A DNA stretch of 64,000 bases, from assembly GCF_947568905.1 (NCBI RefSeq), contig NC_079164.1, forward strand, positions 45,012,001 through 45,076,000. Reading direction: 5' to 3'. Both the position numbers and the translations under genes were made by a program. Below are positions 1 through 63,960 of this stretch, one piece after another. A model generated the notes under the pieces. That model saw nothing but the letters and a program-made list of their open reading frames with translations, did no database searches and was not told the DNA's origin. Each line of letters starts with the position of its first letter. Position 1 is the stretch's first letter. This stretch comes from Ostrea edulis. Its lineage: Eukaryota.

Positions 1-34
1 AGTTTGATATGTATCATTTAATAGTATCCCCTAC

Positions 35-3000
35 CAGTGATTGTGTACTTGGATACATCGGCAGACACAACAACCCCAGACAACAGACTGTCATCCCCCT
101 GAGCTGGCCCCATAGCAATGTGGTACTCTTTGATTGGGGACTCTGTGTCTGAAAACCCTGTCCAGCTACACTCTATAGATTGGTCCGGCTGCAGAGTAGA
201 AACAGTAATTTATACAATAAAATGCAAATTGGAAATTTAAAGGTTTTGGCCATTGTCCTTATCGAACATATGTTAATTAGTTATTCAAGATTAATGAGAG
301 CGAGTTCTTAACCTCTAAATTGAATTAAGTCTGATACAACTTTTTTCAATACTACCTCCAGAGCTTGGATTACATATTTTATGTTCAAATGATACAATGC
401 CATCATATACCTGGATATATTCTGGGCACACCACAGATCCAGTTGTGGGTGTGCTCTCATCAATCACTATGGCACTGGTGATTTTCTTGGAGATTAAGCC
501 CACACTGTTTTCTGCCCATATACTTATGATATTTGGTTTTCCTTTGAAATAATTTGAATAATTTTTAGGATGTATATACACATGCATGTTCAAGAATTTC
601 AAGATACAAATTAATGATGAAAGAAACACAGTATCAGTAAACAGGCAGACCCAGGAATGAGAGCTAGAATTACCCATTTTCGAGGATGTGATGGAAGCCA
701 CATTTACTCCATTGCTTTTCAAGGAGGAGATGTTCAATTCTTTCTTTGCGGAAATGTCCTCAGCATAGGGATAAGTGCCCACAGCACACCAAGCCTTCAC
801 AACATCAGATTCTGTATCATTATAGTGCCACTCAGCCGACACATGCTTTTCAGACATCTCATACACAGTGTCATTCCCCTTTCCCTCTGATACCCATTCA
901 TCTGCTAGTCTGAATAAAAGTCAAAGAAAAACTTTCAAGGAACGCAAGCCACAGAATAACCCACGTTTTTATCTGACAATGCAAATAAATGTGTCCATAG
1001 AGAAATTAATATTCATACAAGATGCAGCAACCATGCAAATCAGTCTACTGCAAGCATTCAGAGACATCATTTACAACACTAACAAATATCACAAAATTTA
1101 CATTTCATAATCTTCATCTGACCTGTCAACCTCCACAACAGGAGGTGTTTGATCCACAGTAAATCCATCAGAACTTGTTTGTAAGACATTTCCATTGTTT
1201 GTCACAGCCCTAATGGTGGTGTAGTAAGTTTGATTTGCCTTCAATTCCAGATTCATTTGTGCATAACCTGAGCTGGTTAAACCTACAACAAAACAATTTA
1301 CAATTCAGCAAATGAAAAGAAAATTCTTAGACTTAACTCATCATTCCAAATGTACATAGCGTAACAGTAAATATGCTCTCCTTCAAACACATACCATTTC
1401 CAGCTACATTGCTTTCTTCCATATGAACGATGTTTTCTTCAGTAAATGGCAGGATATCTTGTTTTTCTGGTCCTGTCCCCACAGCCATCTCAAACTTCAT
1501 GATGCCATGTAAGCTGCTTTCAAAGCCAGTGAACTGCACAGTCACCGTGCTGGCATCCAGCTGTTGGTCTATCTCAAACACACCATCAGGATTTAAGGTT
1601 CCTGACACTATGTTTTCACTGCCTTCAGCTCCATCAAACACCAAACCTACAGTGATTAAGACAGTTTATCATAAATCAGGATCGAAGAATATATATGATA
1701 AGGGTTCTATTTGCACAACAAAATCAACATTTGTGCCATTGTTTCAAAGTGTATGCAATTTGTTTAAAAATCCTTATGCAACTCAGTTGCTGGTATTTTG
1801 TCACCATCTTCAGTACTTTCATACAAAATTGTTATTTTTCACATAGTTTTTCTTCTAGAAAATGTCAAATAGATTTATCTTTTCAGTACACATGCGATAG
1901 AAAAATTTGGTTTGTCCAAAACTGTAATCTATTTCCTGAGAGACAAACATTCACAAACAATAGCATTTTAACTTAATCTGAGTAAAATAGAGAAATTACA
2001 TCACTATATATGTACTCCAAAGGACTGTCTATATCAGACACATCTATATGAAATTTTTCATGATCTCTGTTATGAAATAAAATAATATTTAGACTTTCTT
2101 TAAAGCTAAAAATTTTGATTTATGAGGGCTAAGAAAGGCTGGTTTATATGCTCCAAAAACTGTAAATCTTTTTTCATAGTTTAAAATCAAATTTAATAAG
2201 TTTTTCCAGCATGCAAGTTTACACAGAGAATGGGCATATATATATTTTATTTCCTCTTTAAAATTACATGTATCCAACCGTTGTGTATTATAAAAATAAT
2301 TATTTTTTGATAACTAGTTTTCCTGGCTTAAATTGATGTAAACAAAATTTCAGAACACTAAAATTATCTCTGCAACAGTATCAATTTGTTTCGGAATTAT
2401 TTGAAATAATATATATTTTGCCAAGCCGTTGTTAGAGGACAGGTTTCCATGACAACTATTGCTTAGTCAAACCTTTGTATGCTAATTTTGTCTTAGACCT
2501 ATCATAATATTATTTACCAAATACAAAGTTTCATTCAATTCTGTGACATACCATGGACATTAAATTTTAATAGGTACATAGACCAGTCTCAAGTTCTGCC
2601 ATACAGCCCGAAATCCTGATGCTGGGGTAGAGAATTTCAAAATTTTAGTAGAAGGCTACACGCTTTTCATAACCAAACATAAAGTATTTATTTGCATATA
2701 CACAGAAGTAAAAACAAGTATTTCTAAAGATTAAATGCATTTTCCCAATGTCCCTAAAGTAGAACCCTTAGCCCAGGAGCAAAGTTTACATTCTGGTAGA
2801 AAGTTAGATGCTTTTTATAACTAATGCATTCAGTATTTCTTCACAATACACAGAGGTATACAATATTAAAGGCATCTTCCCTATACATACATCCTCTTTT
2901 GGACCTCACCCTAGAGTGTGAACCCCTGGCCTGTTGGGTCATGACCCTAGAGTGTGAACCCCTGGCCTGTTGGGTCATGAACTTCACAAATTTAGTAAAA

Positions 3001-6000
3001 GGCTGTATGCTCTTCATAACAATATGTATAGCTTTTCTTCAAGCTGTGCAAGGGTAAGGATTTTCAAAGAAATAATGCATTTTCAGTATATGAAGCATAA
3101 AGTGCCACCCTAACAACAGAACTCATGGGCCATGAATTTCCCAATTTTGGAAAAGGTTCCTCTCTTTATCATCCATAAGTACTCATTTTTCGAGGTGACG
3201 TAAGTCAGTCTCGTATGTCAGACCCCAGCTTCAATGGCGCCCTGTTTTAATCACTACCATTTGCGAAATCACTTTGATTTTTAATATAAGAAATTTGTTG
3301 TCACATATGCTAATGCAACGTAAAAGCTGTCACAATTCACTTTGAGATTGATATAGGATCCATATGTTTACCCTCTACGATAAGCGAGTTAAATAAGAAT
3401 TTATGAAATCGCAATTTTTATCCCTTCGATATGAAACAAAGTCCACACATCAAAAAGAATCGCGAATTAGTGTTTAGGTTTGTAAACAAGATCAAAATTA
3501 TTTGTCGTTTGCCAACATTTTATTCCACGATCTTAGAAAAACAGAATTGGACTGTAGGAAACGATTTGCATTGCTTCTGTATTCATTCGCATTTTCACAT
3601 ATAGACGGGGAAAACATGGTCTATTTTTCTCTAGGAATTCTGGGTAAACAGCTGTCTCCTCTTATGTCTGAAAATTATGTTAATTAGCCGATTTATCGCC
3701 TATCAAAAAATAGTTCACATTGATACTATGTTCCATTTTTATTAAACTGTTATATATAAATTCTGTTTTATGTCAGATTGAAGAAGTCTTCCTTGTATGT
3801 GATCTGTTGTATTTATCAAGCAGAAATTGTGTGTAATTAGAATTTTAATATTAAACTCTGCACTATTTCTCTGTATCCATACGCGCCACGCTATCCTGTT
3901 TATCAACAAGGAGAAAACGTCTTGCCTGAGAGAACTGATATATTCTTGCCAACGCATTAACTCAAGGTAATTATCTGAAACCCAATGCGTTAATTTCGTA
4001 CAATTTTACCAAAATATTTCTTTTGGACGCATTTTTTGAGATTTTAATACTAAATCTGGGTGTAAACATGTAATCTTCGATCGAAAGGGCCGAGCGCCAT
4101 TTCCCGCGCTCTTTCATGGTCAAGTCAGATAACTGTAAACATTGATTAAGAAATATAAATGAACATGTTTTTGTGAATATATTTGTTATTCAAGAAAAGA
4201 ACTCCATTGGAAGTAATATATTGGAAATCAAGTTTACATTTCTTTGTCACGAAATATGATTTATCTCAAGAGTTGAATGAATTATCTCAAGAGTTGACAC
4301 TTGTTTTCAAGAGTTGATATTTCAAGAGTGGAAATTTTCTTGGACTGGTTTAACTTTGACTCAAGAATTGAATGAGTTATTTCAACAGTTGACAGTTGTT
4401 GTCGTCATCAGATNNNNNNNNNNNNNNNNNNNNNNNNNNNNNNNNNNNNNNNNNNNNNNNNNNNNNNNNNNNNNNNNNNNNNNNNNNNNNNNNNNNNNNN
4501 NNNNNNNNNNNNNNNNNNNNNNNNNNNNNNNNNNNNNNNNNNNNNNNNNNNNNNNNNNNNNNNNNNNNNNNNNNNNNNNNNNNNNNNNNNNNNNNNNNNN
4601 NNNNNNNNNNNNNAACAAAGGCATCATTAAAAATATTGATATGGAAGCATCCTTAGTTAGTCTAGATTCAAGTTTGTCTTAGTTACGACTCCAAGGGGTT
4701 GGATGGGACCACATTTTTAAAAATCTTCCTACTAAGCACATCCTTGGTAGGTCAGATGTGGCAGTGCATTGTGGCCTATGGGCCTCTTCCTCACATATAG
4801 CTTAATTATGCTTGCTACTCAGTTTTAGAATGTTTCAACAGTTAACACATTTCATTACCTCAAATTGAAGGTATAACATATGCTTCTGGATTACAAATAA
4901 TACCATCCAACATATTATATCCTTCATTTAATTCGATCTTGCATTAGAATCCATGCCATTCACTGCCAAACGTCACCTCGTTTCAGTACCTTCAGTACTT
5001 TGATTATTGTTTAACGTCCTAGCACTAGAGCTCCTGATTCAGGGGCTATGGATTTCACAATTTTGGTAGAGGTGTACTTGCTCATCATGACTGAATGTCC
5101 AGGTTAAAGGACACATCACATGTTTTTAAACTTTTTAATTTTTTCAGCAAAATTAATTCATTTCATGCCTAAAGCTACTTTACATGTGTTTTAAATGAAA
5201 CAGTTTGCGTAGTTTTTGAGTTTGAAAGTGATGAAATTAAAATCTTGTTATATGCATATTTTCTTCGATATTTTAAGCGCCATTATCTGTGACGTCATAT
5301 GCGACCTCGAGCAAGAAGATTTGAAACAGTTGTTAGCCATTTCATAAACAGATTAGATTTAATTGACAAACAAACAATTATCACATTTACGGCTTGTAAA
5401 TAGCACTGCATTAGGGTGTTTTGTGCCGTTTAAGGGTGTACTTGCTGTCAGTAGAGAGGATTTGGACTGTGTTTCTTTTCAATTTTCGAAGGAAGGTATG
5501 AGGGACAAGACGTGAATATTTTTTGTCGGCACAACGACTTTGCCATAAAAAACCCCAGTAGAATTTGTCCCTGTACTTTCTCAAACAAGCACTTGGACAA
5601 AGACGTAGATACGGCATATGCTTTCCGTTCTGCTCTCAAATTCAATACACACTCGCACCAACTGATCTTCACCTTGTAACAACATATAGGCAGAACTTTG
5701 CTAGCAGTGTCTACCAACTGGTAGTTTTAATAAAGAAATTTAAAGATAAAAGATAATTGAACTTTCAATTCTAAATAATAAAATATAATATTTCCCAACT
5801 TTGAATTGAATTATAATGCTTTCACTTTTTTAAGGAACGCGTACGTGTTTACAACAACAGCACACCACGCTCCCACTTCCTAAGTAACAACGTGTAGATA
5901 ACAAAAAATAATGATTAATAAAATTGCTTGAATAAAATAATTTAAAAGTATTGTGATTTTCACAATAAGTTCGATCATTTTTATTATTATTATTTTTTTC

Positions 6001-9000
6001 TCGAAATGCACCCGTGACAGTAGGCCTAGTTGTCAATGATACATAATCGTATCATAATTTAGGTCTATCTAACTTCTCCAAAAATAAATTTAATAATAAT
6101 TGCACTGTTTATTTTAGAAAAGCAACAACGCTAATTACAGTTGTTTACAGAAATGGCATTACTAAATTGTGTTTAGACAGTGATCCCATGTAAACGTTAT
6201 TTACTCGCAAATGCAGATTTCATACTCGCTTTCCTCGCTACATTTGGGTCGCTATTTGTATGCACTGGTGGCTAAAAGATATAAGACTGGGGAAATTTGT
6301 CAACATCGAAATAAATGTTATCCATGGTAAATAAATTAGGCCCCTAAAACCCAAGTTTTTAAAAATATCTAACACTACTTTTACAACAAGTTGATCGACG
6401 AAGGTCGCATATGACGTCACTGTACCACGTGACTACCTATCTAATTAACTAGGCTTTTTGAAATCGGGGCTTAGATTTAAGTCCGTATTGTGGCTAATTA
6501 TCGCAATACTTCAGCGAACGAACTATTACAATTAATTTCTATAAGCATAAGGAAGACAAAATGCATATAATTCTGCATACTTTGAAAACACGGGATGTGT
6601 CCTTTAATAGGGCATTATTTTTCTTAGGTTTTGACTCCATACTTCAGGCCCCAGGGATACATTGACCATGAAATTCAGTTTTAGTTCCCCTTACTCCAAA
6701 GATATTCGATACCATAGTTGATGAAAATGTCCAGTGGCATGTACTTGCAGAGTTCTTTATGTTCAAATGTTAATGCATGATGAATGTCGACAAACACCTA
6801 CCGGATGATTAAAAAAGCGGGACAAACAAAAGAACATACACACAAACAAATATAAACCAAAATATATTTTTTCCTTCAGAGTGTGAGTAAAATTATCTCA
6901 TTCTTTCAATTCTAAAGCAAACAATATATGGTAAAACATTTTACATGTCAAATTCAAGACCTGGTAGTTTTTTCTCCCTACCTGCTTTATCTCCCTGTAT
7001 TATGTTGACTGGAGAGGCTGTAATGTTGGACGTACTGCCCACACCATTCTCTGACCTCAGTGACACGTAATACACTGGCCTATTCAGAGCCTGGTCAGTC
7101 AGGGACAGGGTCAGACCATCTATGTAATAGCTGTTTACAAGGCCAACTGATTTCCAATTAAGAACATCAGTTCCTCCTACAAAACAAATTCTGCTCCATT
7201 AACACGAAGATCGAGACAACTGTGTATCCTTATCGTGAGTAACATTTATTTTAAGGATGTGTATATCTTATTACCAGTATTTACAAAATTGGAAACCAGC
7301 TAAAATGAAATAGAAAAGGGTCAGAATATGACCTGGAGTGGTTCCTACTGCCAGATGATAACTAACTAGTCCTGACTGATGGTCATCCACATCCCAGGCT
7401 GTCATAATTCCCTGTCTGTCGGATTGATACACATAGCCATTGACCAATTCCTCTGCAATTTCTGCCATCACCCCAACTCTCAACCAATGGATCTTCAATC
7501 ATACACATAGTTTAAAACAATTCCACTGTTCCAGCTTGTAGATCACTTTCAGATTTTGAAAAACCACTGACTGCAGTATTAACATTATTTTTCCTGATCT
7601 AAACTGAATATGAATTTTGTAGTGCTTTACAGCTAGGGAATCATCAACTCTGGACAACTTACAATAGGTGGTGTAGTATCAATGATAACTCCGTTGGTCT
7701 CAAAAGAGGACATGTATCCTGCCTTGTTGACTGCTGCCACCCTCATACTGTACAGAGCTCCCTGTCTAAGAGAGAGTCCTGTCCAGCTGTAGCTGGTCAA
7801 GAGACTGTTTACTATAGTGTTCCATGTAAAAGTAGCTAAAAAACAAAATTTTGACAAACGTAATATAGATTATTGAGATGGATATGAGATAATCTCATTT
7901 AATTGAGTGAATAGCATTATACAATAGGACTTAACTTGGTACAAGCTAACTTATTTTAAGAAAGTCAGCATCAGGAGGAGTTAACTAGTATTGCAACTTC
8001 CTCTTCCTTTTTGCACCCCACTCAAGTGGAAGGAACAACAGCACGTTAAGCACTTTTTCACAATCAAGGCCAATCCATGCCTCCAAAGAGAAAAAGAGAT
8101 GGGGGAATGGTTTCTCCAGCCCGGGGCAGAGGACAAAAAAAGTCTCGCCACAACACTAGGCAGCAAAAGCCTGGAACTAAAGTGAGAGATAACCAACCCC
8201 CCTTCCAGCACCAGGAATCTTCAGAGAGCGTGCCAGGGAGTGAGGCTGCACCAGATTTGGGGGAGTTTGTGCCTGCCAACTTTGGCAATATTGGTAACTC
8301 TGATTTTTCTTTAGATTTAAATGTTGCTGACTTCACCCCTGTACCAGAACTTAGCTACTTTGATAATGTAGGTCAACACATCCCTTTGAAACTGAAGCAA
8401 AAAATTTGGGATGGGCAATTTGTTGATTTAGGTTTGCTGTTAAAATCAGCAAAAGAGATTGACTATAGTTTGGGGGGTCAAGGCGAAATTAAAATCAGGG
8501 ATGGAAAATTCTGCGTTGTCAGGTCTAATGATAGTTCATACCTGACAATTGATAAATGGACTAATGCCTTCATGATTTACATGAGCGTTATGTTGGAAAA
8601 ATACAGAGCTCGGGCCCAGGAGTTTTTAAAATACATGCGAGATATCAGATTAGCTGCCACTAGATCCCAAGGCTGGTACAAATACGACGAGCAATACCGT
8701 CTCCGCAAAGCTAGCAATCCTGAATCCTCCTGGGGCATTATCAGTCAGGAATTTTGGCTACTATATGTGACCGGCCAGAGTTCATTCCATAGTCAAACTC
8801 AATTCAGTAATAATAAGCAATTTTCAAGTCAGAGCAGCACATCTGCTGTTACCCAATACTGCTATCATTTCAATCAGGGTAAAAAGTGTAATTTCTTCCC
8901 AAAATGCAGGTTCAAGCACACCTGTAGGAGATGCGGAGGAAAACATCCAGCCAACAACTGTTCTTCCAACTCAGCTGTATAAATTGGGCAAGACCCCTAT

Positions 9001-12000
9001 AAGATTAGACAGAGTCATTTACTACTCACAAAATTATTCAGATAATCATTTTTTACGGGAGGGTTTTCAACATGGCTTTAAACTACAATATTCTGGTCCT
9101 AGATCACCCAGGTTTTCAAAAAATCTAACAAGTTTAGGCAGACAATATTCAGTTGCAGAGGAAAAGATTTGTAAAGAGGTTACATTGGGGAGAGTGGCAG
9201 GCCCCTTTATAGAACCACCTTTTCCAACTTTGCAAGTTTCTCCATTAGGCCTTGTTCCCAAGAAAGATGGCGACTACCGCCTTATTCACCATTTATCATA
9301 TCCAGAAAATGCTTCAATAAATTATTTTATCGACCCAGAACAGAGTTCTGTAACCTATTCAACTATAGATGATGCTGCTGACATTATTGCCAAATTAGGT
9401 AGGGGGGCTTATCTTGCCAAGTCTGATATCAAATCAGCCTTTAGGTTGCTACCAATTAATAGCACGGATTTCGATTTATTAGGTTTTTGCTTTAACGATG
9501 CCTTCTATTATGACAAGATGCTTCCATTTGGGTGCAAGATAAGTTGTGCAATCTGGGACAGATTTGCATGCTTTCTGCATTGGTTGACACAGAATCGTTC
9601 ACAAAATTCCTCTATTCTGCATTATCTGGATGACTTCTTTTTCTGCGGCAGAGAGCATTCCATAAGCAAAAATACCTTGGACACCTTTCTTTCCCTGTGC
9701 AGTGATCTGGGGGTCCCAATTGCAAATGACAAAACAGTATATCCAACCCAAGTTCTTACTTTCTTGGGCATCGAATTTGATACGGTGCAAATGATCATGA
9801 AATTACCATGGGAAAAAATTCATGAAATTAAACACAAAATTCTTGACATTATGACTTTTAGAAAGGTAACACTTCAGCAACTTCAGTCCATATTGGGGCT
9901 TTTGAATTTTGCATGTAGAGTCATAGCTCCAGGTAGGGCTTTCTGTCGACGACTAACCGATGCAACAATCGGCCTTGGCAAACCACATCACCATACCCGG
10001 GTAACATTAGAAATGAAAGCTGACCTCCAAGTCTGGCTCACCTTCCTTCAATCTTTTAATGGTATATCAGTCATTACAAAGAGCATATGGGTCAATAACG
10101 ACACTCTCGAACTTTACACTGACAGTGCAGGGGGAGACTCGGGGGGTTTTGGTATATTTTTTGCAGGCAAGTGGGCATATGCTCAGTGGCCCAGTAGTTG
10201 GTTGGCACAAGGCCTAACCCGAGACATGACTTTTTTAGAGCTCTTCCCAGTCCAAGTAGCTATTGAAGTATGGAAGCATCAATTTGCCAACTACAGAATC
10301 TTGTTTTACATTGACAATATGGCAGTGGTACATGTTATCAACAAAACAACATCAAGGTCACCTAGGGTCATGAAAATTGTAAGAAAACTGGTTCTAACAT
10401 GTCTCAAGCATAACATCTTAATTAAAGCAAGACACATACCATCTAAGCTAAATTCTATCGCGGATTGTCTCTCTCGTTCACAGTGGGGCAAATTCCGACG
10501 ACTAGCACCAACAGCAGATCCATGGCCAGCACCACTTCCCAAGAACATTTGGGAAATTTAAAAAGTGAGGCAAACAGGCTTATCCAGGGTTCCCTCTCAG
10601 TCAACACATACAAAGCTTATCAAGGGGCTTTTACCAGTTTCAAAAAATTCTTGAGTAACTGTGGGATTGCAATGGTTTTTCCTATTCCCATTGACCACTT
10701 GCTTAATTTTATTGCTCATTTGTCCATTTCAGGTACAGCTTATAGAACAGCTGCATTATACATTAGTGCCCTATCATATTTTCACAAATTAAGAGGCATA
10801 CAGGATAATACTCAATCATTCATCGTCAAAAAAGCCTTGCAGGGTCTGCACAAAAAGCGAGGTAACCCTGTAGATCCACGAATCCCATTAACCATATCTA
10901 TTTTGCAACGTGTAGTATCAGCATTGCCATCAGTCTGTAGATCACCATATGAGGCAGCATTATTTTCCACAATTTTTTCAATTGCATATCACGGCTTGCT
11001 TAGGGTTAGTGAAGTCTTGTCTATCCATAGGGCACACATTTCCCTTACTAAGAACAATGTCAGCATTCTAATTCCAAGGTCTAAAACTGACCAAATTGGA
11101 AATACAACTACGTTGCAGATTTCCAAACATGCCAATTCTGATACTTGTCCAGTGCAATGGGTACTCAAGTTTTTACGGTTGCGCCCTAACAGTGACTCCA
11201 CCTTATTTTTCATCCATATGGATTACAAACATGTAACAAGATACCAGTTTAATTGCATGCTACAGAAAACACTTAAATTTAATGACATTCAGGGACATTT
11301 TAGGCCACATAGCTTCAGAATTGGGAGAGCCACAGATATGGCAAAACAAGGGGTTTCAGATTCAGAAATTAAATCTTTGGGAAGGTGGGAGTCAAATGCT
11401 TTTCAAAACTACATAAGATTATAATGTAATGGTTTGTTGAATGGAATACAGGCTAATTTGCCAAAAGTATTCCAGGTTTCAAGACAGTTTGGATAGTAGG
11501 ATCGTCTATACCTTTTTGGGCTGGTGAAGAGGCACGGAGGAGACCGGGCGGAAAGAACCTCAATCTAGGGGTTGACATCTTTTGGAAGGGGATAAGAGGG
11601 CTAAAATGGCAAGACCTCGACAAACTGATAACAGAAGAACTCAAACATCAACCACAACCAGATGTATTGGTTATTCATGCTGGGTCAAACGATCTAACAA
11701 CAGCTGGCAATACTGCACTTAGATTTGCACATGAAATTCAATGTAGCTTGTATCGCTACAATGCATTGCTACCAAAAACTTTGCTCATTTGGTCAACAAT
11801 GCTTCCCCGTCTTTACTGGCATGGTGCACCTCTAGGTAAGGGTGGCGCTAAGATCGATCTAAAAAGACGCAAGGTTAATAAGGCTATTAAGAAATTTGTT
11901 ACCTCTCAAGTTAACGGAGCTTGCATTGTTCATGACAGAAATATAAACGTCCATCAAACCAGTTTATTTAGGTATGACGGAACTCATCTAGCCGAAAGTG

Positions 12001-15000
12001 GAAATCAAGCTTACTTAAATAACATACAGGGTGGTTTGGAATTTATTTTGGGGGGAAAGGGCAAAATCTTCCCTACGCAATAGTTTGCAGAATCTTGTCA
12101 CTTGTGGTTGGTTCCTATAACCTGTCATTCATTTAGGAGATAGATACTCTCTAGAGCAATTGGTGGGGAACATCATATCGATGTTTGTGGCGGGGTCAAG
12201 GGAGACATCATCCCTGTACAAGCTTAACCTGTTGTCTCTGCCCATCTGCATCAAAGCATGAGGGATGTCTCATGGCTGTGTGTTAACATGGAAGTTAAAT
12301 GCCATTGAGCAAATGTGTGGAATAACTGGAAACTGCTTGGGGTCTGCAGCATTTCAGTGCTCAGACCCCCTCTACCTCTATAAAAGGAGGAGAGGCTACA
12401 GGCTGGGTGGTGTGAAAGTTCTAAACCAGGTAGCAAGCCAGAGACAGGGTGTAAAAGCTGTGCAGCTTGTGTGCCTAGCCACCATGCGTGTTAGGCATGG
12501 GGTTCCTTGGCACTCGCATCAAAGCGAGGCCACTAGTTTGCCCATTGGTTTATGGTATCCTAGTTGTCTCCCTTGACTCCTACTAATTTTTGCGGCCAGT
12601 ATCATCCAACACTGGTGTATTGTGTTTTTATGATGTCATTGCTCAATAAATTCATGTAAAGTACCAATTGGTGTTTATTTTTCATTCTCACTAGTGGCTG
12701 AAAGATAATTCAATAATATTGTGAAAAGGCAGACAAAGCAAACTATCTTGGCTGCAATCTTCAATTAATATAGATTATTGAGATGGATATGAGATAATCT
12801 CATTTAATTGAGTGAATAGCATTATACAATAGGACTTAACTTGGTACAAGCTAACTTATTTTAAGAAAGTCAGCATCAGGAGGAGTTAACTAGTATTGCA
12901 ACTTCCTCTTCCTTTTTGCACCCCACTCAAGTGGAAGGAACAACAGCACGTTACCCACCCACCCTCCCCATATTTTGAAAAAGTTAAGTAAACCATCAAT
13001 TTGTTTTACTTTGGTCAAATAATCTGCGCCAAGTATGTTATATTTTTAGGTAAATCGCAGGGCGTGGATTCAGTTAAGCTGAGCCTGTTTTTGTACTTGC
13101 ATAGGACTGCTCATATGACGATAGTTGCACCTTGCTAATTGCCAACCAGTCAACGAAAGAGGACTATTGAATAAATATCCAGATAATTTTTCTTTTCTTA
13201 CATTTGTCGCAATTTTAAGGGGGAGGAGTCAGGGAAACATTAAGGCCAATAAGTGTACAAGCTTAACCTGTTGTCTCTGCCCATCTGCATCAAAGCATGA
13301 GGGATGTCTCATGGCTGTGTGTTAACATGGAAGTTAAATGCCATTGAGCAAATGTGTGGAATAACTGGAAACTGCTTGGGGTCTGCAGCATTTCAGTGCT
13401 CAGACCCCCTCTACCTCTATAAAAGGAGGAGAGGCTACAGGCTGGGTGGTGTGAAAGTTCTAAACCAGGTAGCAAGCCAGAGACAGGGTGTAAAAGCTGT
13501 GCAGCTTGTGTGCCTAGCCACCATGCGTGTTAGGCATGGGGTTCCTTGGCACTCGCATCAAAGCGAGGCCACTAGTTTGCCCATTGGTTTATGGTATCCT
13601 AGTTGTCTCCCTTGACTCCTACTAATTTTTGCGGCCAGTATCATCCAACACTGGTGTATTGTGTTTTTATGATGTCATTGCTCAATAAATTCATGTAAAG
13701 TACCAATTGGTGTTTATTTTTCATTCTCACTAGTGGCTGAAAGATAATTCAATAATATTGTGAAAAGGCAGACAAAGCAAACTATCTTGGCTGCAATCTT
13801 CAATTAATACTATTTGGTAATTATTCATTTGCTGCTCTAGAATGACAAAGTATTTTTTTCAAGTTACCTGGGTAGACCTTCATCCTTGTACCATGGTATA
13901 ACTCGTAGATCTGTATTTGGAACTGCTTGATGCCAGACTCATTATCTTGGAAAGCAAAACTGGCATGAAGCTGATCAGTCTCATCCTATAAAAAAAGAAG
14001 CAAGAATAACATAAGGATTCTGTAAACAAGAGATACATTGTATTACTGGTCTGAGCAGTAAATTACTTCAGTATCATTCAACAAGTATGTAATAACTCTT
14101 TTTCGAAGGTAAAATCAATGCGACTGAGTTAGACCTTGGTGACAAAGTATGTGAAAATACTGTACATATACGTCCTGGGGAGAGTCCTTATAAAATCAGA
14201 CTTTCACTATTGCGATCCTTCTTTTCAAGCCCGAGTTCTACATTTAACAGACAGGGCTTCATGATTCTAGTACACATGGCTTATTGTCAATCATAATTAT
14301 GCAACATTGATTATCTGCTACACATCAAAAAGGGACAAAAGTTCAATTCAACCTGAGGTCAAAACTAAATACTTGACTGATATGTTGGAAAGAAAACTTA
14401 CTGCTCATTAAAAATTACAAGTGGTCCTAAAAACAATACCTCAGCAGTAACAAATTCCTAAACATTCAGCTATTGTGCAGTATACCTGGTACATAATGTC
14501 TGAGCTCCCAAGTCCATCCCACAGGTATGTTAGCTCTGGGGGAGTGAGATCTACCACAAATCCATCTGTTTCCTCAGTTACAGAGTTCAGAGCCCCATTG
14601 GTGACTTTCAGCTCCATCTTTACACGATCTTCATGTTCCAAGTTGAAGTTCAGCCATGTAACACTGGAGGAAGTGTTACTGAATGTGGACCAATCTCTCA
14701 GCAAGTCGTAGCTTGTTCCCAGATTTCTGAAATTTTTAGTACATGTCAGATTGTTAGTTGCACATTATTTGCATTCTGATATTTAAAAGCATTTTCAATT
14801 GAATTTCTAGGAATAAAACAACAATACTATTAATAGTAAATAATTTGATAAGACGGTGAATCAAACTACAGTGTGGTCTTGTAATTCAGATACCAACAAC
14901 CCAGATGCTTCACCTGGACAATTTTTTAGTGGGAACCAGTTTTATTTGGAATTTTGCATCATTATCCCATAAAATTCACTTCCAGAATCTTTATGGCAAA

Positions 15001-31100: not shown

Positions 31101-34100
31101 AGATCTGCAAATTATTAATTTTGGCCGATATACATGTAGTTTGATGAAAGAAAGGGGTATGTCTTCTGGTCAGAAAAGTAAGCAGTCAAGATGTGTATTG
31201 TTTGGCAATTTTAATAACACAAGGCGTTATTCTAATGATTTCAAGAAAGAAAAAAAACCCACTACTTTAACCAAAAAATTGTTATGTAGCGATCTACCTT
31301 AAAATTTTGTACTACAAGCTATATAGTAACACTTACATTGTACAAATACATGTAACATGATCTGTAGAACCATAATAATGATTTGAATGAATTCTTAAAA
31401 TCTTAAAAGATAATAAATAAGGTCACAGGAAGGTAAACATGCACAAGATTTTAAGTGTTTTATATCTAATTCTAAAGATACTTTTTGAGTGTTTTATACC
31501 GAATTTCAAAGATACTTTTTGAGTGTTTTACAACTAATTTCAAAGACACTTTTTGAGTGTTTTATACTTAATTTTAAAGACACTTCCTGGGATGGTAGCT
31601 ATCTTACTCAACAGGTCAAAGTTTTTGTTGATTTGAAAGTCAAGGTCACGGAAAACACTTTAGGAGTATGCCATGAAGTGAGAGGATGCACTATATTGCA
31701 GAACCAATCTTTCATACAATTGGAATTGTTAAAAGTATATGAAAAGCATAATTACCCCACACATAGTTGAAGAGTTCATTATCTTCCTTGGCTACTTGAT
31801 TTCCCACAACTGAATTAATTTTGTAAGTACATGTATTCATATCGAGTTCCATTTTGGTGTGCCGTTTAACTAGTGCTATATATACACAACATGTGACTTG
31901 CTCACAAGAAGCTGGTATGTGACATCTCACCAGGTTCTGTTGAGTTGGATCAGTCAACGATGCTGTTTTTGTTGTACAGTCTGAAAATTAAACGTGAATA
32001 TACGTCAAGTTCATTACAAGTACTGAATTTAAAAGACATGCCCACTTCAAAATAAATACCATTTTTCCATCCATTTGTAGCAGAGCCATAGGTTGTATCA
32101 GAGAGAGTACACTGATCTGTGTTGTACATAAAGTGGTCCAGTCCCAGTTCCATGTACAGACTGTCTGCCTGAGCCTCTGTTATAGAAGCCACATCAGCAA
32201 TGGACCGGGCACTCATCCAGTTGGTCAAAGAGAAAGCTAGAAAGACAAAAAAATACATGCATAAAAAAATGAAGTATGACTATCAATCAAATTTTCTACA
32301 CAAGTATTTCATCAGTTAATGGAGGTATGTTTCAGATTAACAACTATATCATATCCACTGTATATTCCAGTCTCCAATCTTAGGCTGTCCATTGTGGTCC
32401 ACACAGACTCGGGCTTAATACATTACCTGGGTCCAGAAATCCATCATTGTAAGTGCAGCTTTTCATTGAAAATTCTGTGTCCGTAAATATGGTGAAGCTC
32501 TCAGCACAAGCAGCACCATCTTCATAACACACATGGGCAGACATGTCTACTTTATATTTGTTATTGGCTGTGTCCTCTGTGATTTTGTACCTAAAATTAT
32601 ACAGGTACCTCAGCATTATCTTTAAGATTCTCTTTTTTTCATATGCAAACCATGCAAAGCATGAATTAAAGTAATTCATCAGATAATCTTTTTTACCCAC
32701 AATTTTCTTAAATAAATCAATTGAAAAAAAGTCCTCACCTCAATTCAAACATGCCCTTTAGAGACATTTTCTGTTCTGTACCTATAATACATACTTTAAG
32801 ATTATTTAAAGATAAATATTTTCAATATTCATGTAAATGAGAGATACAATAATATTGTTTTAATTGGTATATGATCATAGTTATTCTGTTATTCTTGAGT
32901 CAAACAAGAAAAAATCTGGGTTTGAACCTGCATTACTGCACTTCATCACACAACAGTGTCTAGACTTTATTTGTCATTCAGTTTGTCAGAAATAGAAACA
33001 TATCTTCAAAATATATCTGCATTCAATTGTACAATCAACTAGTAAGTAATAAAGAACAAGATTTTTAGTCTGACAACACAAACTTTGTACAATTCCTGGT
33101 ATGCCCATGATAAAAATGTATATGTTTCAAATTTAGCAAGTCGAGGAAAATATCAATATCTTATCCCTTATATTTTGTGATACTTTACTTTTGAGATCTT
33201 GCTTTGTCAGATTTATCAGCAAGACATTATTTAAAAATTTGCAAATATACAATATCTTTCATCACTAACTATATATATATGATTATAAAATGTTTTTTAA
33301 CAAAAACTCTCTTTTCACATTTATAAAGATTTGTGCGAAAATAAATGATTTACAGTACAAGTTTCACTAGCATCATAATATCTCTCTTCTTCTTGCATCT
33401 TATCATACATTAGTCATGACATTAATATCAACTCATCTTCACTCATACTACAGTTATGTCCATCAGATGGGACGTTAAAGGGTGTCCCGTGTCAAGGATC
33501 ACACCTCCCTTGACATGCAAAAGATCATTTCCCTCATTTTCAAAAAAGAGTACACTCACTGGGTGCCGTCAGGGAAACTAAAACACTCACAACCAAACAT
33601 ATTTCAATTAGTTAACCACCGTAAAATGCCTGAAATATTGCCAAAACGACATAAAACTGCAATCAATCATACTACAGTTGTCTGGATTCAAACATAACAA
33701 TGTTAAACATCAATCTTGATGTAGTACTATTGCATAAATACTGCAATACTATTGTACAATAATAGTCATGCTTGTTACTCTCTGAATGTAAACTTGGAAG
33801 TCCTTACATTCATTTACATTTCCTTGTTACTGTAGCCCTCTTCATTAAAGTGGAATTTTATTGCATTTCAACAACATAATCATAAAGACGACTCTAATGG
33901 AAATTTTTAAATGTTTGTGCATAAAACATGACAAGATATCATGATAGATACAGCAAGTCACCAGAGTAACTCTTGTGACCTATAGATAAATATCTTAAAA
34001 CTACGGGAAATGAAAATCACTTCACTGTAAGCATAAATTCATGATAAGCGGCATTTGCTCTATCCGTGTTTTACTGTATAAGTAAATTTGAGGTTTGGCG

Positions 34101-37100
34101 TTCACTCTATCCGTGTTTTACCTATAGTAAATTTGAGGTTTGGCGTTCACTCTATCTGTGTTTTACTGTATAGTAAATTTGAGGTTTGGCGTTCACTCTA
34201 TCTGTGTTTTACTGTATAGTAAATTTGAGGTTTGGCATTTGCTCTATCGGTGTTTTACCGTATAGTAAATTTGAGGTTTGATATATAAGGTAATGAAATT
34301 TATCTGTAAAATATGAAATTCAAAATCTTAAATTAAAAGGAAAAAAAGAACAAAACAAAAACGAAACAAAACCCCCAAAAACAACAACAACAAAAACAGA
34401 ATGCAAGTACAACATACCAAATGTAAAGTTGTGTAGGTAATGATTGACCGTTATTTTTTCTACAGTGATGTCCAGGTAATTCCGACACTGGCTGAAGACA
34501 AGAGATACTTCCACAGATTGACCAGACAGTCGAGAAACATCCAGGCAACATTTGGCTGCAGAGCAGATGGAAGGATTGTAGCATGTTATGGCTTCTCCTG
34601 TCAGGTTCCTTAGAGAGGGAGGACTGGTGCAATCTGATATAGTCAGAAATACACAAGCATTGTATTAAGTATGACACAGCACCAAAAAGACTATATCACT
34701 ATATAAATGTGACAAAGCTTTATCTGTAGTAAAGAAACCATCCATACAAAATCATTCAAAATACCCAATCACTGAGATAAAAAAAATATTGCAGTACTAC
34801 AGTAATAGCAACAAGATGTGTTTATGAAATAATATGCTTCCAAACATGGTCAAGTTCAAATTCAGCAAAATCTGACCTTTGACTCTGACCTCTCACATAG
34901 TTTTACCTTGACCTATCAATTCACAAAGCATGATAGTAGAGATGTTCATATTTTAGATAAATCATATAATTATAGGTAAATTAATTTCAAATGTGTTCTG
35001 ATAGATTATATAATCTTGATAATAAAAAAATCACAATTTAATGTATGCTCTATTCCCTTGCTCAAAATATTTAAGAAAAATTGAATTTCATGAGATTTTG
35101 CTAGGGGTACAAGTTTTTAAAAAAATAAGATTATGATAAACAACTGTTTTCATAAAGAGAATCTTGACATATTATCTATTAATTTATATGCCAAAAACAT
35201 GTATTTCCATATTGTTCAATGTTAAGGTAGCTCACTATACCTTGAAATTTATTTTGATAATTTATATGAACAAAAGGCTCCGGCAGATTTAACTCAGGAT
35301 CTGCAAGTCAGTAACTGGATACTTTATTAATGCACTGAGCTACGACAATAGACAAACAAACCGATCAACATATTATTAAATAATTTCCCAAAATGTTTAA
35401 ATCACCAATATGATGTAGTGTCAGACAGAGTATATTAGTCCTGGTGTTATGAGCCACCCTTAATTAATTAGTAATATTTTTAAAGTACGCACATATATCA
35501 TAAAATTATATGTCTATTGCTTATTTTTCAGATATTTTCCCAATGCATCATTTTCTATGTTGATATCCGTTAATGTAAAACCAGGTATTTCAGATCTAAT
35601 TTTCCTTTGATGAAATTTTTTTGGGGCTATTTATGTATCTTTGATGCTAGTAAACAGACCTAAACCTCCAATCTTTGATTTAAGAAGAGTAAAAAGTACT
35701 ATATCATACTAGAATTCCAGCCATCAAATCCAGCTGCTGAGTAAATTGGGTCTGTTGTTCTACTACAGGAAGGTGACTGCATCATGTTTTCAATCTCATG
35801 ATCTTTTAGGAGCTCTGACTTTTGGAAAGTTGATAGCGGATCAAGAGCAGCATTCAGACCTTGGTTTGTCAACCAGGTGGATAATCCAAATCCTTCAAAA
35901 ATTACAAAAATTGGCAATTTAACACTTGATTAATGAAACATTTATATTTGGAAAATGTTCTACCCAAATTAGTACAATTTAGTGAAATGTGACAAAATGA
36001 CAGAGAAAAACATTACCTTGGAGTCCAGTAGTCCAGTCACATACAGATTGTGTGATCTTTGTGTCCACTAGAACATTCTCACTTATAGTGCATGTGGCCG
36101 CTTCATAGCAGACTTGAATCTGTAGGTCTGCTACATACTTTCTCTGAACTACCAAATCCTCAAGATTCATCCTAGAAGCACACATTTATCAATTCATCAC
36201 AACTATACAGATATGTTACGGATCATCATCAATTGTTGTCAATAATACATATGTAGTATGTAAAATGTCCACAGATTTCAGTATCAATATTTTACAACTG
36301 TTACAGATTTTAGACTTACTTCCATCTTACAACTCCATTCAAATTAAACTCTTTGGATGACCCTAAAAAATAAAATAAAAATCTTTATGCAGCTTCAATG
36401 GCCATAAGCGCCGAGCATATTAGGCCTAAATTTTGTAGCCCTTCACCGGCAGTGGTGACGTCTCCACATGAGTGAAATATTCTCTCGAGGGACATAAAAC
36501 AATATTCAATCAATCAACCAATCTAGTCAAATTCTTTAAAACAATTTACATCCTTTATCCATGAACTTTTGCAAGTGGAATATTCCACTGGTTTCTTCAA
36601 AACAGCAGTTTACAACTTTTGATGGTTTCTATACCTAGAGCCACCTGTTAGTCAAAGAAAACAGTAACAAATTTCACGTTGACAGTACAGTAGAAAAACT
36701 GGAAAAAGGAATGTATGGGCAAGATCGGAGACATTTATATCAGAGATTAGTAACTTCCCCAAGTTTCGTATTAACTAAATTGCAGTCCAGTATTCCGATA
36801 AAAATGCATACGCTGATTTAAATTGTGAATTCCATCTTAATAATGAAAGATATTAAGTTATTAAGTTCAAATCTTCCAAATTCTATCATAAAAACATTCA
36901 AGATACAATATTTTTCAGAAGATGTTTCACTTCAAAGTAAAATGAAAGTGAAGTTTCTAAAAGCAACACATGACTCAAACTCAGAAAAATCAGCGAGAAT
37001 TTAGCAAATAACTATGATTTGCCAACTTTTTTGTTAATAGTATATTTGTTGATCAACTCATTTCAAAACTTGTTACGTTTGATTCTAATTCATAATAGGA

Positions 37101-39456
37101 GTGAAATAAACTTAAATCAACATCAATTTATCAAACTACATGTATAAATAGGAATTAACAATTTATAGGTGGGACTGTAACATATACTTTAAGCAGGAGA
37201 CATGCTGCCATAAGAGTTGCTTATTTCTGTTATCCATGTGTATGTCTCTGACAAGATATACCAAATTCTTCCATGAATGATTAGGACACTTTTTACCTAC
37301 CCAAACTGACAGCTGTGCTTTTGTTTCAAAATCAAAGACATAACAAATCTATCAAAATTGTCAGGAATGAGAACTAATAGAATATCAGTAATGTTGCTGG
37401 GTTGAATTTTCAAAATTTTGTCACATGAAGCAAAATCTGCAATTTCAGTGCAATTAACAAGAGGCTCACAGGCCTTATCGATCACCTGGGTATTAGTTAA
37501 AAATATCACAAGCCCCAAGGGCTATGAAATTTAGAATATTTTTCTACTCTGCATATCTAAACTAAATTCTGATATTCAGCAGCAGTATAAAACAAGATGT
37601 GTTCTCAATACACAAATGCCATCGAAAGTGACCATACTGATAAAAAGACTACATGAATATTATGTTATATCAACACTATATGACTTTTTTGGACCCTCCC
37701 CAGAGTCAAAACCCTGGTGTTGCAACATTCATAATCTCAATACATTACTTTTTGCTTTTCTTAAATATGCATTTAATTTTTACACAGTATCAGCAAAATT
37801 ATAAGTCTTTTAAATAATGAAAGACAATAATCGTTGAATGATTCCCTCGAAAGCAATAGGCTTCAGATTTTGTGGTTTCTTATAGTACATGTAATTAAAT
37901 TCTTATTTCCATTATACAAATAATGTATATGCTTCATGACAAAAATTATAGATTGCAACAGATAACCTAAAGTTTTAGTCTCACTTTGAAATTTTATATG
38001 AGCCAAAAAGAAAGAAAAGAAAGAAAAGATTGTTATCGGTATATAATCCTTTACCTGATAGTGTGTAAATGACTCATAAAGGTGACTATACAATGCATAG
38101 CATTTGTATATTTTGATACAATATTACGAATTGGACAGTTTTTATTTTTTATTTCAATATGTTGTATTGATCAGACATGATTTTACAGAAAGATAAAAAA
38201 AAAAAAAAGCGGAAGTGGGGGGGGGGGGGGGGGTGTATCTAGGGCCAGCAATATTTTTCTCTCAATTAAAAGCCAGAGACGTTGCCAGAATCACTCAATA
38301 TACAGTACTCCTTAAGGTTAATGTTTTTTGTTTAAATCTGGCAATTGCCTTTCATCATGCCTACCCCATGAATAATCCAGAAGATCAGTTGTATCTTTCA
38401 GTTTGTCAATCCTTGCTTCCATTTTATATCTGCAGAAGTTAAATTTTGTGACGGTTTCAACATGGCGTTTTACTGGTGCCAGGTACATACAACAAGAGAT
38501 CTGATCACATGATGAAGCAATGTGACAACGGATTTCTGCTGGATTGGAAATGTTTCCCAGTGTTGAGGTTGGAATTCCACTTAGACATTCTAATGAAGCA
38601 AAACAAGTTACATACAGTTTACATAATGTCTTCATTCTTCCCAAAAGAGAGAAGAAATACAGACAAGAGGCTCATAGGCCACATCGCTCACCTGAATCAC
38701 CTTGGCCCATATATAAAGATTTTCCCTGTATATTCGCATGTAAAACTTTGATCCCCATTGTGACTCCAACCTACCCCCAGGACCCATGATTTTTGCAAAC
38801 TGGAATCTGCATCATGTCAGGAAGCTTTCATGTAACTGTACACTTTCTGGCCCATTGGTTCTTGAGAAGAAGATTTTTAAAGATTTTTCTTATATATCTG
38901 TATGTAAAAGACCCCCGGGGTCAGTGATGTTAACAAACTTAAATTTGTATTATGTCAGGACGCTTTCATATAAAAGTAAACTTTTCAGGCCCAATGGTTT
39001 TTGAGAAGATTTTCCCTCTGTATTTGTAAGTAAAATCTTTATTCCCTATTGTGGCTCCATCCTACCTCCAGGGGTCATGATTTTAACAAACTAAAATCTA
39101 CACTATGTCAGGAAGCTTTCATGTAAATTTGTACTTTCCTAGTCCAGTGGTTTTTCAGAAGATTTTTAAAGATTTTCCCTAAATATTTGCATGTAAAACT
39201 TTGATCCCCTATTGTGGCCCTATCCTACCCCCGGGGGCAATAAATTTTACAAACTTGATTCTGCACAATGTCAGGAAGCTTTCATGTAAATCTCAGCTTT
39301 TCTGCCCAAGAATTTCTTGAGAAGATTTTCAAATGCCCCCCCCCCCCTCCCCTATTTTTGCAGTTTTGTGATGATCTCCCCTTTGAAGGGGGCATGGCCC
39401 TTCATTTGAACAAACTTGAAAGCCCTTCACCCAAGGATGCGTTTTGCCAAGTTTGT

Positions 39457-39488
<32 letters not shown>

Positions 39489-42400
39489 TTGAAAATGTGA
39501 AAAGTTTACAGACAGATGAACAGACAACAGGCGATCAGAAAAGCTCACTTAAGCATTCAACTTAGGTGAGCTAAAAACAAAATAAAACTAAACCTGAACT
39601 AATCAAGTGTTTTAATTATACAGTAATTATTAGTACTTGAAACTGTTTCTACAGTTACTTCAAATAATCACAAACAAAATGTTTACCATTATTCCAGCCA
39701 CTTGTAGCCGGACCATATGTTGCGTCAGAGAAATTACACTGATCTGTGTTGTACATAAAGTGGTCCAGTCCCAGATCCATGTACAGACTGTCTGCCTGAA
39801 CCTCTGTTATGGAAGCCACATCAGCAATGGACTGGGCACTCATCCAGTTGGTCAAAGAGAAGGCTGGAAAATTTTATTTCCATAAATTTTAATAACACAC
39901 TCAAATTTATCAATGGAAACATGCATAGAACAGTATCAAGCATTAAAAATAACACATTACTACAACAGCAAGTTAATGTGATTTATCACTTGAGTGATAC
40001 TGTGTTGTTTCATCACATGCAGATATGTACATGAATTGATAAATCCTCCTGTGTAGTTGCAGGTTTTCATGTTGAAGATAGTGTTGGAGAAGATATTGTA
40101 GGTCTGACTGCAGAGTGCAGTGTCGTAGCATGCTGAAACATCTAGAGTAAATCTGTACTGTTTGTTTTCTCCATCCGTGTTGATAGAAATGCTGGAAGTA
40201 GAATGTACAAAAGTCTAGTACCATTCTGCTTAAAACCAAGTTCTGCACTTTGTATCAGAGTATGCAAGAAACCAACCTTGTTTTGAACATCCCTTTCAAG
40301 CCTACTGTGTATGTTGTATCTGTGTTCATAAATATAGCAAAATATCAATGCACAATATATTTGTAAATGTTTATAACCAAATAATTCTCCAACAAAATAT
40401 TCAATGAAAAAGGAATTTTTTATCACCTCTAATTCAAAACCTACACAAGAGAGAGGAAAAATACAAACAAAAGATTTAAACAAATCTTTTAATCAATCAA
40501 ATTCATCAATTCCAAACAATTGAAAAACTGTCTCTTAGATGTTCAGATAATTCAAATTTAGATTGTTCTCCAATAGAATTTCAATTAATCCAAAAGTAAA
40601 AAAAAAATTAAGTGAAATTATTGTTATTGGAATCACCTGGGTGCCTGACGTTAAGAGTAAAAATTATTCAGAACAGCCTAATTCTCTAACAAAGTTTCAT
40701 TGAAATAGAGTAATTTTTTTCCATACCATTTAGAAAGAGATCTGTTATATACATTCTGACTGGTACTCTCTCTACAGTGATATCCATGTAGTTTGCACAC
40801 TCATTAAAATCTACCACTACTTCTAGAGGTCGCCCATTAAACCTGTCAATCTCCATACAACAAGTGACTCCAGTACAAGAGCTAGGATTGTAGCAGGTGA
40901 TGGCTTTACTGCTCAGATCCTGTAGTGTTGGGGCAGGTAAACACTCTGAAATAAAATAAAGAAACCTGTCTAAAGGACTCAAAAGGTTAATCGTATGTAT
41001 CCATTTCTCAGCTCAATCTGCTGATACTTCAAATACAATGACAATTTAACTGTAAAGGAGGGAAACAACTATAGTGTAATTATTGAACTCAACTTGTTAT
41101 AGTGGGTTACCTCTCATGCATTCTATTGCTGAATCATCTACACGCGCTTGAATCATATGGGGTTAATATTTTTTTGGTGGAAACAATCTGTCCCAGTGAG
41201 CTAAATATATGTGTACCCAGTATTTCAACTTTGACTACACCCTACACTCTTCACAGACCTGTTATCCATCCATTGACAACAGTGGACAAAGTATAGACAG
41301 TATCAGCTGTTCTGTTGCAGACATGTTGTTTCATCATGTTAGCTACCCCATGTTCTTCTGTCACTCTCTGTTGTAAGTGCCCAGGCAGTGGTGTCAGAGT
41401 TCCTGAGTAACCCTTCCCAGCAATCCAGTTGTTCACCGAAAAAGCTGTGCAAACACAATCAGTCAATCTATTTCTTGTCACCATACCAACAATTTTTTTG
41501 CTTACAATATGTACCAGGGTATATGATTTTGTTTATAATATGCACGTGAAAAATATCTGTACTATATACACTAAAACAATATTTAACTATTGCAATATGA
41601 GTAGAGCAATATTTCATAACTAACTCATTTCAGCAGATCTTTCACAGTCTCTCTTGGGTAGGACTGTGTTATTCAGGACTGATGCCACAATTGCACAGGT
41701 GGAAGCACTTTCAAAGCACACACTGATGTCCAAGTCCACAATGTACTGATTTTGTGCCTGTAGCTCATAGTAACTTACTCTGCAATTAAGAATAGTAAAA
41801 ATACTCTACACCATTCACAAAAGTTCATCTCCTTTCTCCAAATACCCCATAACAGGTGTTTTTAGAGACAAGCAAATCTAGTAATGTTTTTTTCCCCTTC
41901 TAAACCTGGTAATTCATTATTAGAGTATCAAAATTTTAGTGATTTCATCTGCTGATAAAAAAAAATATCACAAATAAAATGGTAATTTATTCAAGAAATG
42001 CATGTAAAGGAAACCATGAACTACCAAATTCTTCGGTTATGAATTTGCATCATCACCTCACTGTCACTCGGTTATTTATATACATGCATCAAAATTGCCA
42101 CTTCCTTTAAAACCATTGATAATCATTTCAGGTTTGCTTTTGAAATATAATTTCCCAAGCTACTTGGCCCCCAGTGGCTTCATACAACCCAGACTGAGAT
42201 TGATGTTACATATGCGGCATTCATCTTCATGAACCTGTCAGCTCATGTTTCAGAATCTTTCACACATTTATTAATGCAGAGATTCATCAGCTGTTTTGAG
42301 GATGAATGGTTACATGTTGCAGCAGGTATTTTTTTCAGGGGATCCAGAAAATTGTCTGTTATTTGACCACAAAAACAGTCAAATATGATAAAAGCTTTTT

Positions 42401-57159: not shown

Positions 57160-57191
<32 letters not shown>

Positions 57192-63317: not shown

Positions 63318-63960
63318 CTGTGATCAAATACAGGAATGCACATTTAGTGTACTCATTGTTTATATTCATTATCTGACCCAATAGGTTTGACAATAACCAT
63401 ACGGTCGTACTGCCAATGTTAATATGTAGTGAATATCTAGTGCATTGGTTCCAACAATGTTATTGAAATACAGAATATCAATGTACAGTCAAAACTGCCA
63501 TAGCGACCCACTGTATTAAGCGACTCAGTGTCGTATTTGATCATAAAAAGTCCCTCCCCCCCCCCCCCCCCAAAGACATTATCCTATATATTGTACCTGT
63601 ATTAAAGACCATCTGTCTGACGCGACCAACGGCCATGATTTTTACAACCCTTTCGTGTAATTTCACGTAATTTTACCTTTATCTAACGACTGTACATTTT
63701 TCAATTACAATGTGATTCCTACTTTTGATGTCAGTTCAGCATGACTATTCTGGGAATTATCGCCCCTAACACTTTCGTTTTAAAATGCACAGGTAGTACT
63801 TCGGCGGTGATATTATTTAGTCGACCCTCTGAATCAATTATTATACCCAAGCTGTCAACATGCAGGGTTGTGTGTGGTTAATTAATAAAACCCAAGTTGT
63901 TGTTTATTTAACAAAATCAAGGATCAGGGAATCAAGGCCGGTGTGTTTGAAGGTGTAAAT
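49806..63960. repeat. Tandem segmental duplication, copy 2 (runs off the window end)
   Basis: Colinear with 32092-47620, lacking 43330-44281 and 47075-47439. Confidence 0.92.

Follow-up and report, generated by a model that had tools for sequence, protein, structure and literature searches.

Splicing onto one basic Gag leader as the probable source of three enzymes in an oyster Ngaro retrotransposon

We analysed a window of 64,000 nucleotides from the oyster Ostrea edulis (RefSeq assembly GCF_947568905.1, contig NC_079164.1, forward-strand positions 45,012,001 to 45,076,000), which holds a single intact element at 7861-13809. This element is a Ngaro retrotransposon (Ngaro superfamily, order DIRS). 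Its open reading frames (ORFs) and split direct repeats are arranged A1-ORFs-B1-A2-B2, and gag is followed by reverse transcriptase/RNase H (RT/RH, the pol frame) and then by a tyrosine recombinase (YR), with Pfam matches to RVT_1, RVT_3 (weak) and Phage_integrase. There is no target-site duplication, AATA being a short motif common to the left end, the B1/A2 junction and the right end. An SGNH hydrolase frame stands behind YR, giving the full order A1, gag, RT/RNase H, YR, SGNH, B1-A2-B2 (Table 1). No methyltransferase domain was found among the element proteins (Pfam, E 0.1), and the gag ORF had no Pfam match. An 801-base query gave 11 matches at 98-100% identity across its full length, the window copy counted, which indicates a young family. 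As developed below, it is very probable from the sequences that one donor at gag codon 70 is spliced to any of three in-phase acceptors, which would give the esterase, the recombinase and the reverse transcriptase the same basic Gag leader of 69 residues.

Table 1. Features of the Ngaro element, in window coordinates (a slash marks a splice boundary; L numbers denote other loci or the families named after them, X numbers runs of contigs).
Feature	Position	Strand	Remarks
Split direct repeat A1	7861..8048	+	99-100% identity to 12766-12953
gag ORF	8077..8982	+	301 aa, ATG 8077; C-terminal Cys/His cluster
Shared leader exon coding for Gag 1-69, with one further base	8077..8284	+	Basic N-terminus, predicted disordered
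Shared phase-1 splice donor 8284/8285	8282..8290	+	L013 junction; GC in window copy, GT in most relatives
Second phase-1 GT site 8293/8294	8291..8299	+	Candidate substitute donor in GC copies, inferred
Predicted pol splice acceptor 8909/8910, phase 1	8890..8910	+	Equivalent site used in L206, L207, L169 (L138)
pol body (RT/RNase H)	8910..10561	+	549 aa; first AUG is body residue 203
YR splice acceptor 10483/10484, phase 1	10465..10484	+	X1 joint; L205, L213; fixed synonymous codons
Tyrosine recombinase body	10484..11424	+	312 aa; Pfam PF00589, PF02899
Branch-point-like CTAAT and SGNH splice acceptor 11475/11476, phase 1	11453..11476	+	L013 junction, phase conservation
SGNH hydrolase body	11476..12083	+	201 aa; S10, G41, N71, D167, H170; leader plus body 271 aa
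Split direct repeat B1	12215..12770	+	Identical to 13254-13809
Split direct repeat A2	12766..12953	+	Pairs with A1
Split direct repeat B2, right end of element	13254..13809	+	Identical to B1

An earlier note on this DNA had described the SGNH frame as lacking an AUG and as lying behind a splice acceptor, and its coordinates were all reproduced. The frame is open over 11457-12083 (208 amino acids), directly behind an in-frame TAA at 11454-56, and its first ATG, at 11799, falls downstream of the Ser (11505), Gly (11598) and Asn (11688) of blocks I-III. CTAAT occupies 11453-57 and TTCCAG ends at 11475. The same 141 bases across the acceptor were present at 11/11 near-identical loci (L001-L011, the window among them), so the AUG-less start is no lesion of the window copy. 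Modelling and alignment predict that the SGNH fold and its S-G-N-D-H residues are intact: among 25 sequences S10, N71, D167 and H170 are invariant and G41 is kept in at least 90%, with blocks I, II, III and V recognisable and block I reading GSS, not GDS. Pfam scores fell under the curated cut-offs, and a single-sequence PDB search with SGNH gave nothing significant. The best PDB match of the profile was 4C1B, the ZfL2-1 ORF1p esterase (E 2.5e-8). The structure model had a predicted local distance difference test (pLDDT) score of 96, and Foldseek gave template-modelling (TM) scores of about 0.7 to sialate O-acetylesterase and 0.64-0.69 to platelet-activating factor acetylhydrolase.

The evidence for splicing comes from seven genomic copies in four families that are exactly spliced, two at the SGNH, two at the YR and three at the pol acceptor. 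In L013, a member of the window family (G000:C4, 18.66 Mb), A1 and gag run as far as 8284 and continue without a gap at 11476 into SGNH and B1; the frame is kept across the junction, which reads Gag 1-69, Gly, FKTVWIVGSS. A letter in its B1 is common to 3/4 full-length copies with a GT donor and to no GC copy, a pattern suggesting that L013 probably derived from a GT parent. From the other SGNH-spliced copy, L140 (family L131), exactly the G/GTGAGT...TGTAG/ interval is gone relative to L131 and L154, again in frame. L205 (family L138) and L213 (family L135) resume exactly at the YR acceptor, and L206, L207 and L169 (family L138) resume at a third acceptor, which lies towards the end of gag and opens the pol frame; L169 bears a later insertion a few bases ahead of its junction. 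The three pol copies have 0-1 private letters in common and are thus probably separate events. Donors of L138 and L135 had been predicted ahead of the donor-region searches for copies, and of eight copies whose match breaks off no more than 10 bases from a predicted donor, seven pick up again exactly at an acceptor that was predicted. The missing intervals have the marks of U2-type introns, with GT or GC...YAG ends, a branch-like motif and precise removal. Several other loci (L015, L180/L215, L216-L219) were ruled out as junction copies, being decayed or insertion-bearing. Given spliced copies at all three acceptors, the three enzymes are likely to arise by splicing onto the Gag leader and not by ribosomal slippage.

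Across 30 loci the donor 8284/8285 reads GT at 23 and GC at six (the window included), the remaining locus, L013, being already spliced. A crude donor scan ranked a phase-1 G/GTGAGT first in the gag leader of L128, L129, L131, L138 and L166; in L135 a phase-1 site ranked second. The earlier note had proposed a spliced gag-SGNH message from one of four gag donors (8294, 8372, 8432, 8879). All four are phase 1, as it said, and its acceptor at 11476 is borne out by the spliced genomic copies and by conservation of phase, but none of these donors is the one used, which is 8284/8285. Its suggestion of a Gag-esterase fusion likewise finds support as a fusion, although the fused part is Gag 1-69, without the folded Gag core.

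The leader has 13 Lys/Arg in its first 40 residues, with the motifs PPKRKR and SPARGRG, and 13 related Gags have 7-14; PPKRKR presumably resembles a nuclear localisation signal (NLS). Gag residues 1-96 have pLDDT <50 in a model built on a shallow alignment of 10 sequences, and the leader stops ahead of the predicted folded core. The six newest, near-identical copies (window 8286; L031-L036) have GC for GT at the shared donor, a silent change. Such a donor may lower splicing or shift it to 8293/8294, and these copies may be splice-poor templates complemented in trans.

Conservation was assessed at 59 loci in 19 families, comprising 60 of the 150 listed SGNH matches (1008 candidates), fetched at length, plus the window and minus L140 and L180, which were dropped because their upstream DNA is not native acceptor. 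SGNH protein identity among the families is 32-74%. A check of the acceptor among relatives, as the earlier note had advised, came out in its favour: at 8-22 nt ahead of the Trp codon of SGNH beta-1, a YAG stands in phase 1 in 18/19 families, in phase 0 in none and in phase 2 in three, the phase-1 rate in shuffled upstream DNA being 12%. YTRAY lies 19-24 bases before the acceptor AG in 9/19 families, and GTAAY in two more. Where a pyrimidine tract would be expected, about 9-11 bases before this AG, an AAG is kept in most close families (window 11464-11467 and the equivalents in L122-L151), and may weaken or regulate the acceptor. Two further observations concern the same region. A contig of run X2, from a distant family, matches the window solely over 11444-11477, with loose ends at both sides, and the L158 copy has no stop in the SGNH frame for 209 codons upstream, as far back as the YR region.

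For YR, a contig of run X1 joins the 8284 donor to 10484 in the YR frame, with a short side of 29 letters; that X1 is RNA is a guess. The pol-frame codons at this acceptor are nearly fixed, Gln being CAG in 17/17 rows and Arg CGT in 15/16, vs 41% and 9.5% elsewhere in pol. For the pol acceptor, spliced copies are known from family L138, and none was seen in the window family.

Several observations weigh against this splicing scheme. No spliced read came from certain RNA, the runs being contigs in which RNA and DNA were not distinguished for X1 and X2. An 8284-11476 joint is absent among the joints listed for the contig runs, and one unbroken X3 contig spans 8783-12244. The window copy, like five others, has GC at the donor and may be poorly spliced at that site; the top GT sites that the crude scan gave for the window family were not the true donor. 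No donor-stopping copy was found in L129 (21 matches), L128 (40/99 scored) or L160 (40/104 scored), and family L122 has no clear gag donor and no spliced copy among four candidates opened. At pol and YR the acceptor overlaps motifs conserved in the protein, and YAGs in phase 1 are common ahead of pol. Families are related, and their counts are not independent. An in-frame AUG lies upstream of SGNH in at least one copy of 5/19 families and in most copies of three (L122, L156, L178). Finally, the earlier note had called the SGNH acceptor textbook; a site exists, but the word is too strong, as its pyrimidine tract is poor and CTAAY-N10-22-YAG occurs 52 times in the window vs 94 expected from shuffles, so that the motif alone is not beyond chance. 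What raises this acceptor above chance is its conservation, together with a genomic copy that resumes exactly at 11476.

We considered whether YR and pol could instead come from programmed ribosomal frameshifting in the ORF overlaps, with SGNH made by reinitiation or slippage from a short ORF at 11441. The ORFs do overlap, and the available part of PMC13003380 quotes Poulter and Butler (2015) as holding that YR is probably made by frameshifting; from ATG 11441 a different frame runs for 28 codons and overlaps the SGNH start. Yet SGNH has no overlap with YR and is preceded by the in-frame stop at 11454, ATG 11441 is absent in the relative L014, and the YR frame, as read from codons, is closed two codons before the acceptor in L156 and L160. 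Exactly spliced copies for all three acceptors also speak against frameshifting, and we regard this account as very improbable.

Just as improbable, in our estimate, is that splicing is incidental and that a separate or leaky RNA yields SGNH through an AUG of its own or a near-cognate codon. The upstream AUGs in five families, which the earlier note had named as a sign against splicing and which thus partly bear that sign out, favour such a route, as do the gene calls P0002 and P0004 with an upstream Met. Against this, the other 14/19 families have no upstream AUG in any copy examined, nor has any of the 11 near-identical loci of the window family, and families with an AUG still retain the phase-1 YAG. 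The L122-L124 family has an in-frame AUG 13 codons before SGNH, a TAG ahead of that AUG and no clear gag donor, and may use another expression route; translation from its own AUG may be a secondary route in family L122.

A slightly smaller chance still is given to the late donor 8878/8879 as the source of the main esterase product, which would then include most of Gag and sit in the particle shell. This site is in phase 1, and a Magallana gigas UniRef gene model (P0022) joins the end of Gag to the start of SGNH, but both SGNH-spliced genomic copies used the early donor, and RefSeq models have short basic leaders; the late-donor product could be a minor isoform. Scarcely credible is the view that deletion at microhomologies of 1-2 bases, whether in DNA or by template switching, produced the spliced copies. 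Internal deletions are indeed common, but for all the eight other events with non-splice ends (the 8864-11869 lineage, L130, L137, L144, L154, L176, L210, L211) and the short overlaps of G or GT at the L013 and L140 junctions, seven copies in four families are in frame on the predicted donor and YAG ends, and the overlap is one base in L205, L206, L207 and L213.

Protein models in other species point to the same arrangement of leader and esterase. Among 150 listed profile matches, 30 have SGNH starting 45-150 residues in and a length of at most 380; 6/30 pass a strict basic-leader filter, and several more are alike by eye. All ten basic-leader SGNH proteins that were looked up proved to be RefSeq models, their sources being mussels, oysters, clams and abalone. 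One Magallana family has a Gag (P0196) with 70 residues in common with SGNH proteins (P0050, P0186, P0188), from which it parts at a Gly, and two Magallana leader-SGNH proteins are contained whole in Logan contigs whose lengths reach 1308 and 1240 bases. A search with the leader found no leader-pol model among longer proteins, which is a weak test, and, at near lengths, no full leader-YR protein and one composite model (P0197). Many mollusc gene models annotated as uncharacterized, with a basic leader and SGNH, are likely transposon products.

If the three enzymes are indeed spliced onto the Gag leader, unspliced RNA would encode Gag and also act as the template that is reverse-transcribed, and three spliced RNAs would encode leader-Pol (619 aa), leader-YR (382 aa) and leader-SGNH (271 aa). 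The spliced RNAs would retain both terminal repeats and occasionally be copied back into the genome, the balance among the four RNAs being set by weak splice sites. The leader might bind element RNA, aid nuclear entry and bring the enzymes to the particle without fusion to the Gag core. Because the fusions lack that core, the basic leader would carry them to RNA, as RNA does for foamy virus Pol. We would put only a little short of an even chance on a wider proposal: that in animal Ngaro elements each enzyme (RT/RNase H, recombinase, esterase) is fused by splicing to a single basic, NLS-like Gag leader, which replaces Gag-Pol fusion for packaging and targeting in the manner of complex retroviruses, that the leader-esterase converged on the design of LINE (long interspersed nuclear element) ORF1p, and that the newest GC-donor copies spread as splice-poor templates borrowing enzymes in trans. 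Slightly more tentatively, and by analogy with the ZfL2-1 ORF1 protein, which likewise combines a basic motif with an esterase, the leader-esterase may hold the ribonucleoprotein at acidic membranes and hydrolyse acyl esters in them, a lipid or membrane role of the kind that the earlier note suggested.

Other features of the locus were recorded. Repeat B carries a TATA-like box (12378-12384) and AATAAA (12645-12650), a layout like the U3-R-U5 of a long terminal repeat (LTR), and A1 stands at the 5' end without a B upstream of it. A multi-exon host gene runs on the opposite strand (window 1-7830 and 14441-14764, minus), and the element is placed in one of its introns, with an exon a few tens of bases away. 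Elsewhere in the window there is a large recent duplication (about 32000-47000 and 49700-63900) with a period of about 17.7 kb and 96-100% identity; arrays of a repeat of 155-166 bases form part of it. At least 15 copies (L016-L030) make up a non-autonomous lineage whose junction, at 8864-11869, lacks splice ends; this lineage retains most of gag and both ends, without pol, YR and most of SGNH.

How AUG-less downstream ORFs of YR retrotransposons are expressed has so far been an open question, frameshifting being the guess in the review quoted by PMC13003380. Exact junctions and real protein definitions (271, 382 and 619 aa) make the unproven hydrolase function testable with the right N-terminus. 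The splicing scheme was not reported in the available parts of PMC9210276, PMC9341512, PMC4157794, PMC5408684, PMC8547959, PMC7192593, PMC3783388, PMC6681497 and PMC3266345 or in the open literature searched; subscription papers, Repbase Reports and supplements may bear on its novelty. We see in it a novel variation in expression within an already known class of elements, broader than the earlier note's proposal in that it also covers pol and YR.

Parts of the scheme have parallels elsewhere, described here from the accessible portions of the cited articles. Foamy virus Pol is likewise made from a spliced subgenomic RNA with a suboptimal splice site, without a full Gag-Pol fusion and with packaging thought to be mediated by RNA (PMC7828637), but it has its own start, whereas in Ngaro a coding Gag leader is common to three enzymes and integration is by YR. 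The ORF3/env genes of LTR retrotransposons, including the GDSL ORF3 of the bdelloid element Vesta, resemble the oyster hydrolase as 3' cargo ORFs, with a GDSL/SGNH esterase in Vesta and spliced messages typical for ORF3s (PMC5408684). These belong to another element class, and ORF3 alone is spliced, not the RT or the integrating enzyme. With the ZfL2-1 ORF1p esterase (4C1B), the oyster enzyme shares the SGNH fold, an intact triad and a basic peptide N-terminal to the esterase. That esterase is active, binds liposomes and acidic phospholipids, and has an arginine-rich motif in front of it (PMC3905857). It comes from a single ORF with a coiled coil, whereas the oyster esterase would be splice-assembled and has no coiled coil that we could see; and although ZfL2-1 is the best PDB sequence match, the top ranks listed by Foldseek are other SGNH enzymes. 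In Xenopus, the Ngaro-like DIRS-53_XT and DIRS-54_XT have the same order of gag, RT/RH, YR and SGNH, the same A1-B1-A2-B2 repeats and, as here, no methyltransferase domain found (PMC9210276). The available text of that study calls the hydrolase function unproven, contains neither "splic" nor "intron" (0 matches) and gives no expression mechanism, whereas in the oyster element one donor and three acceptors have been mapped, with spliced copies.

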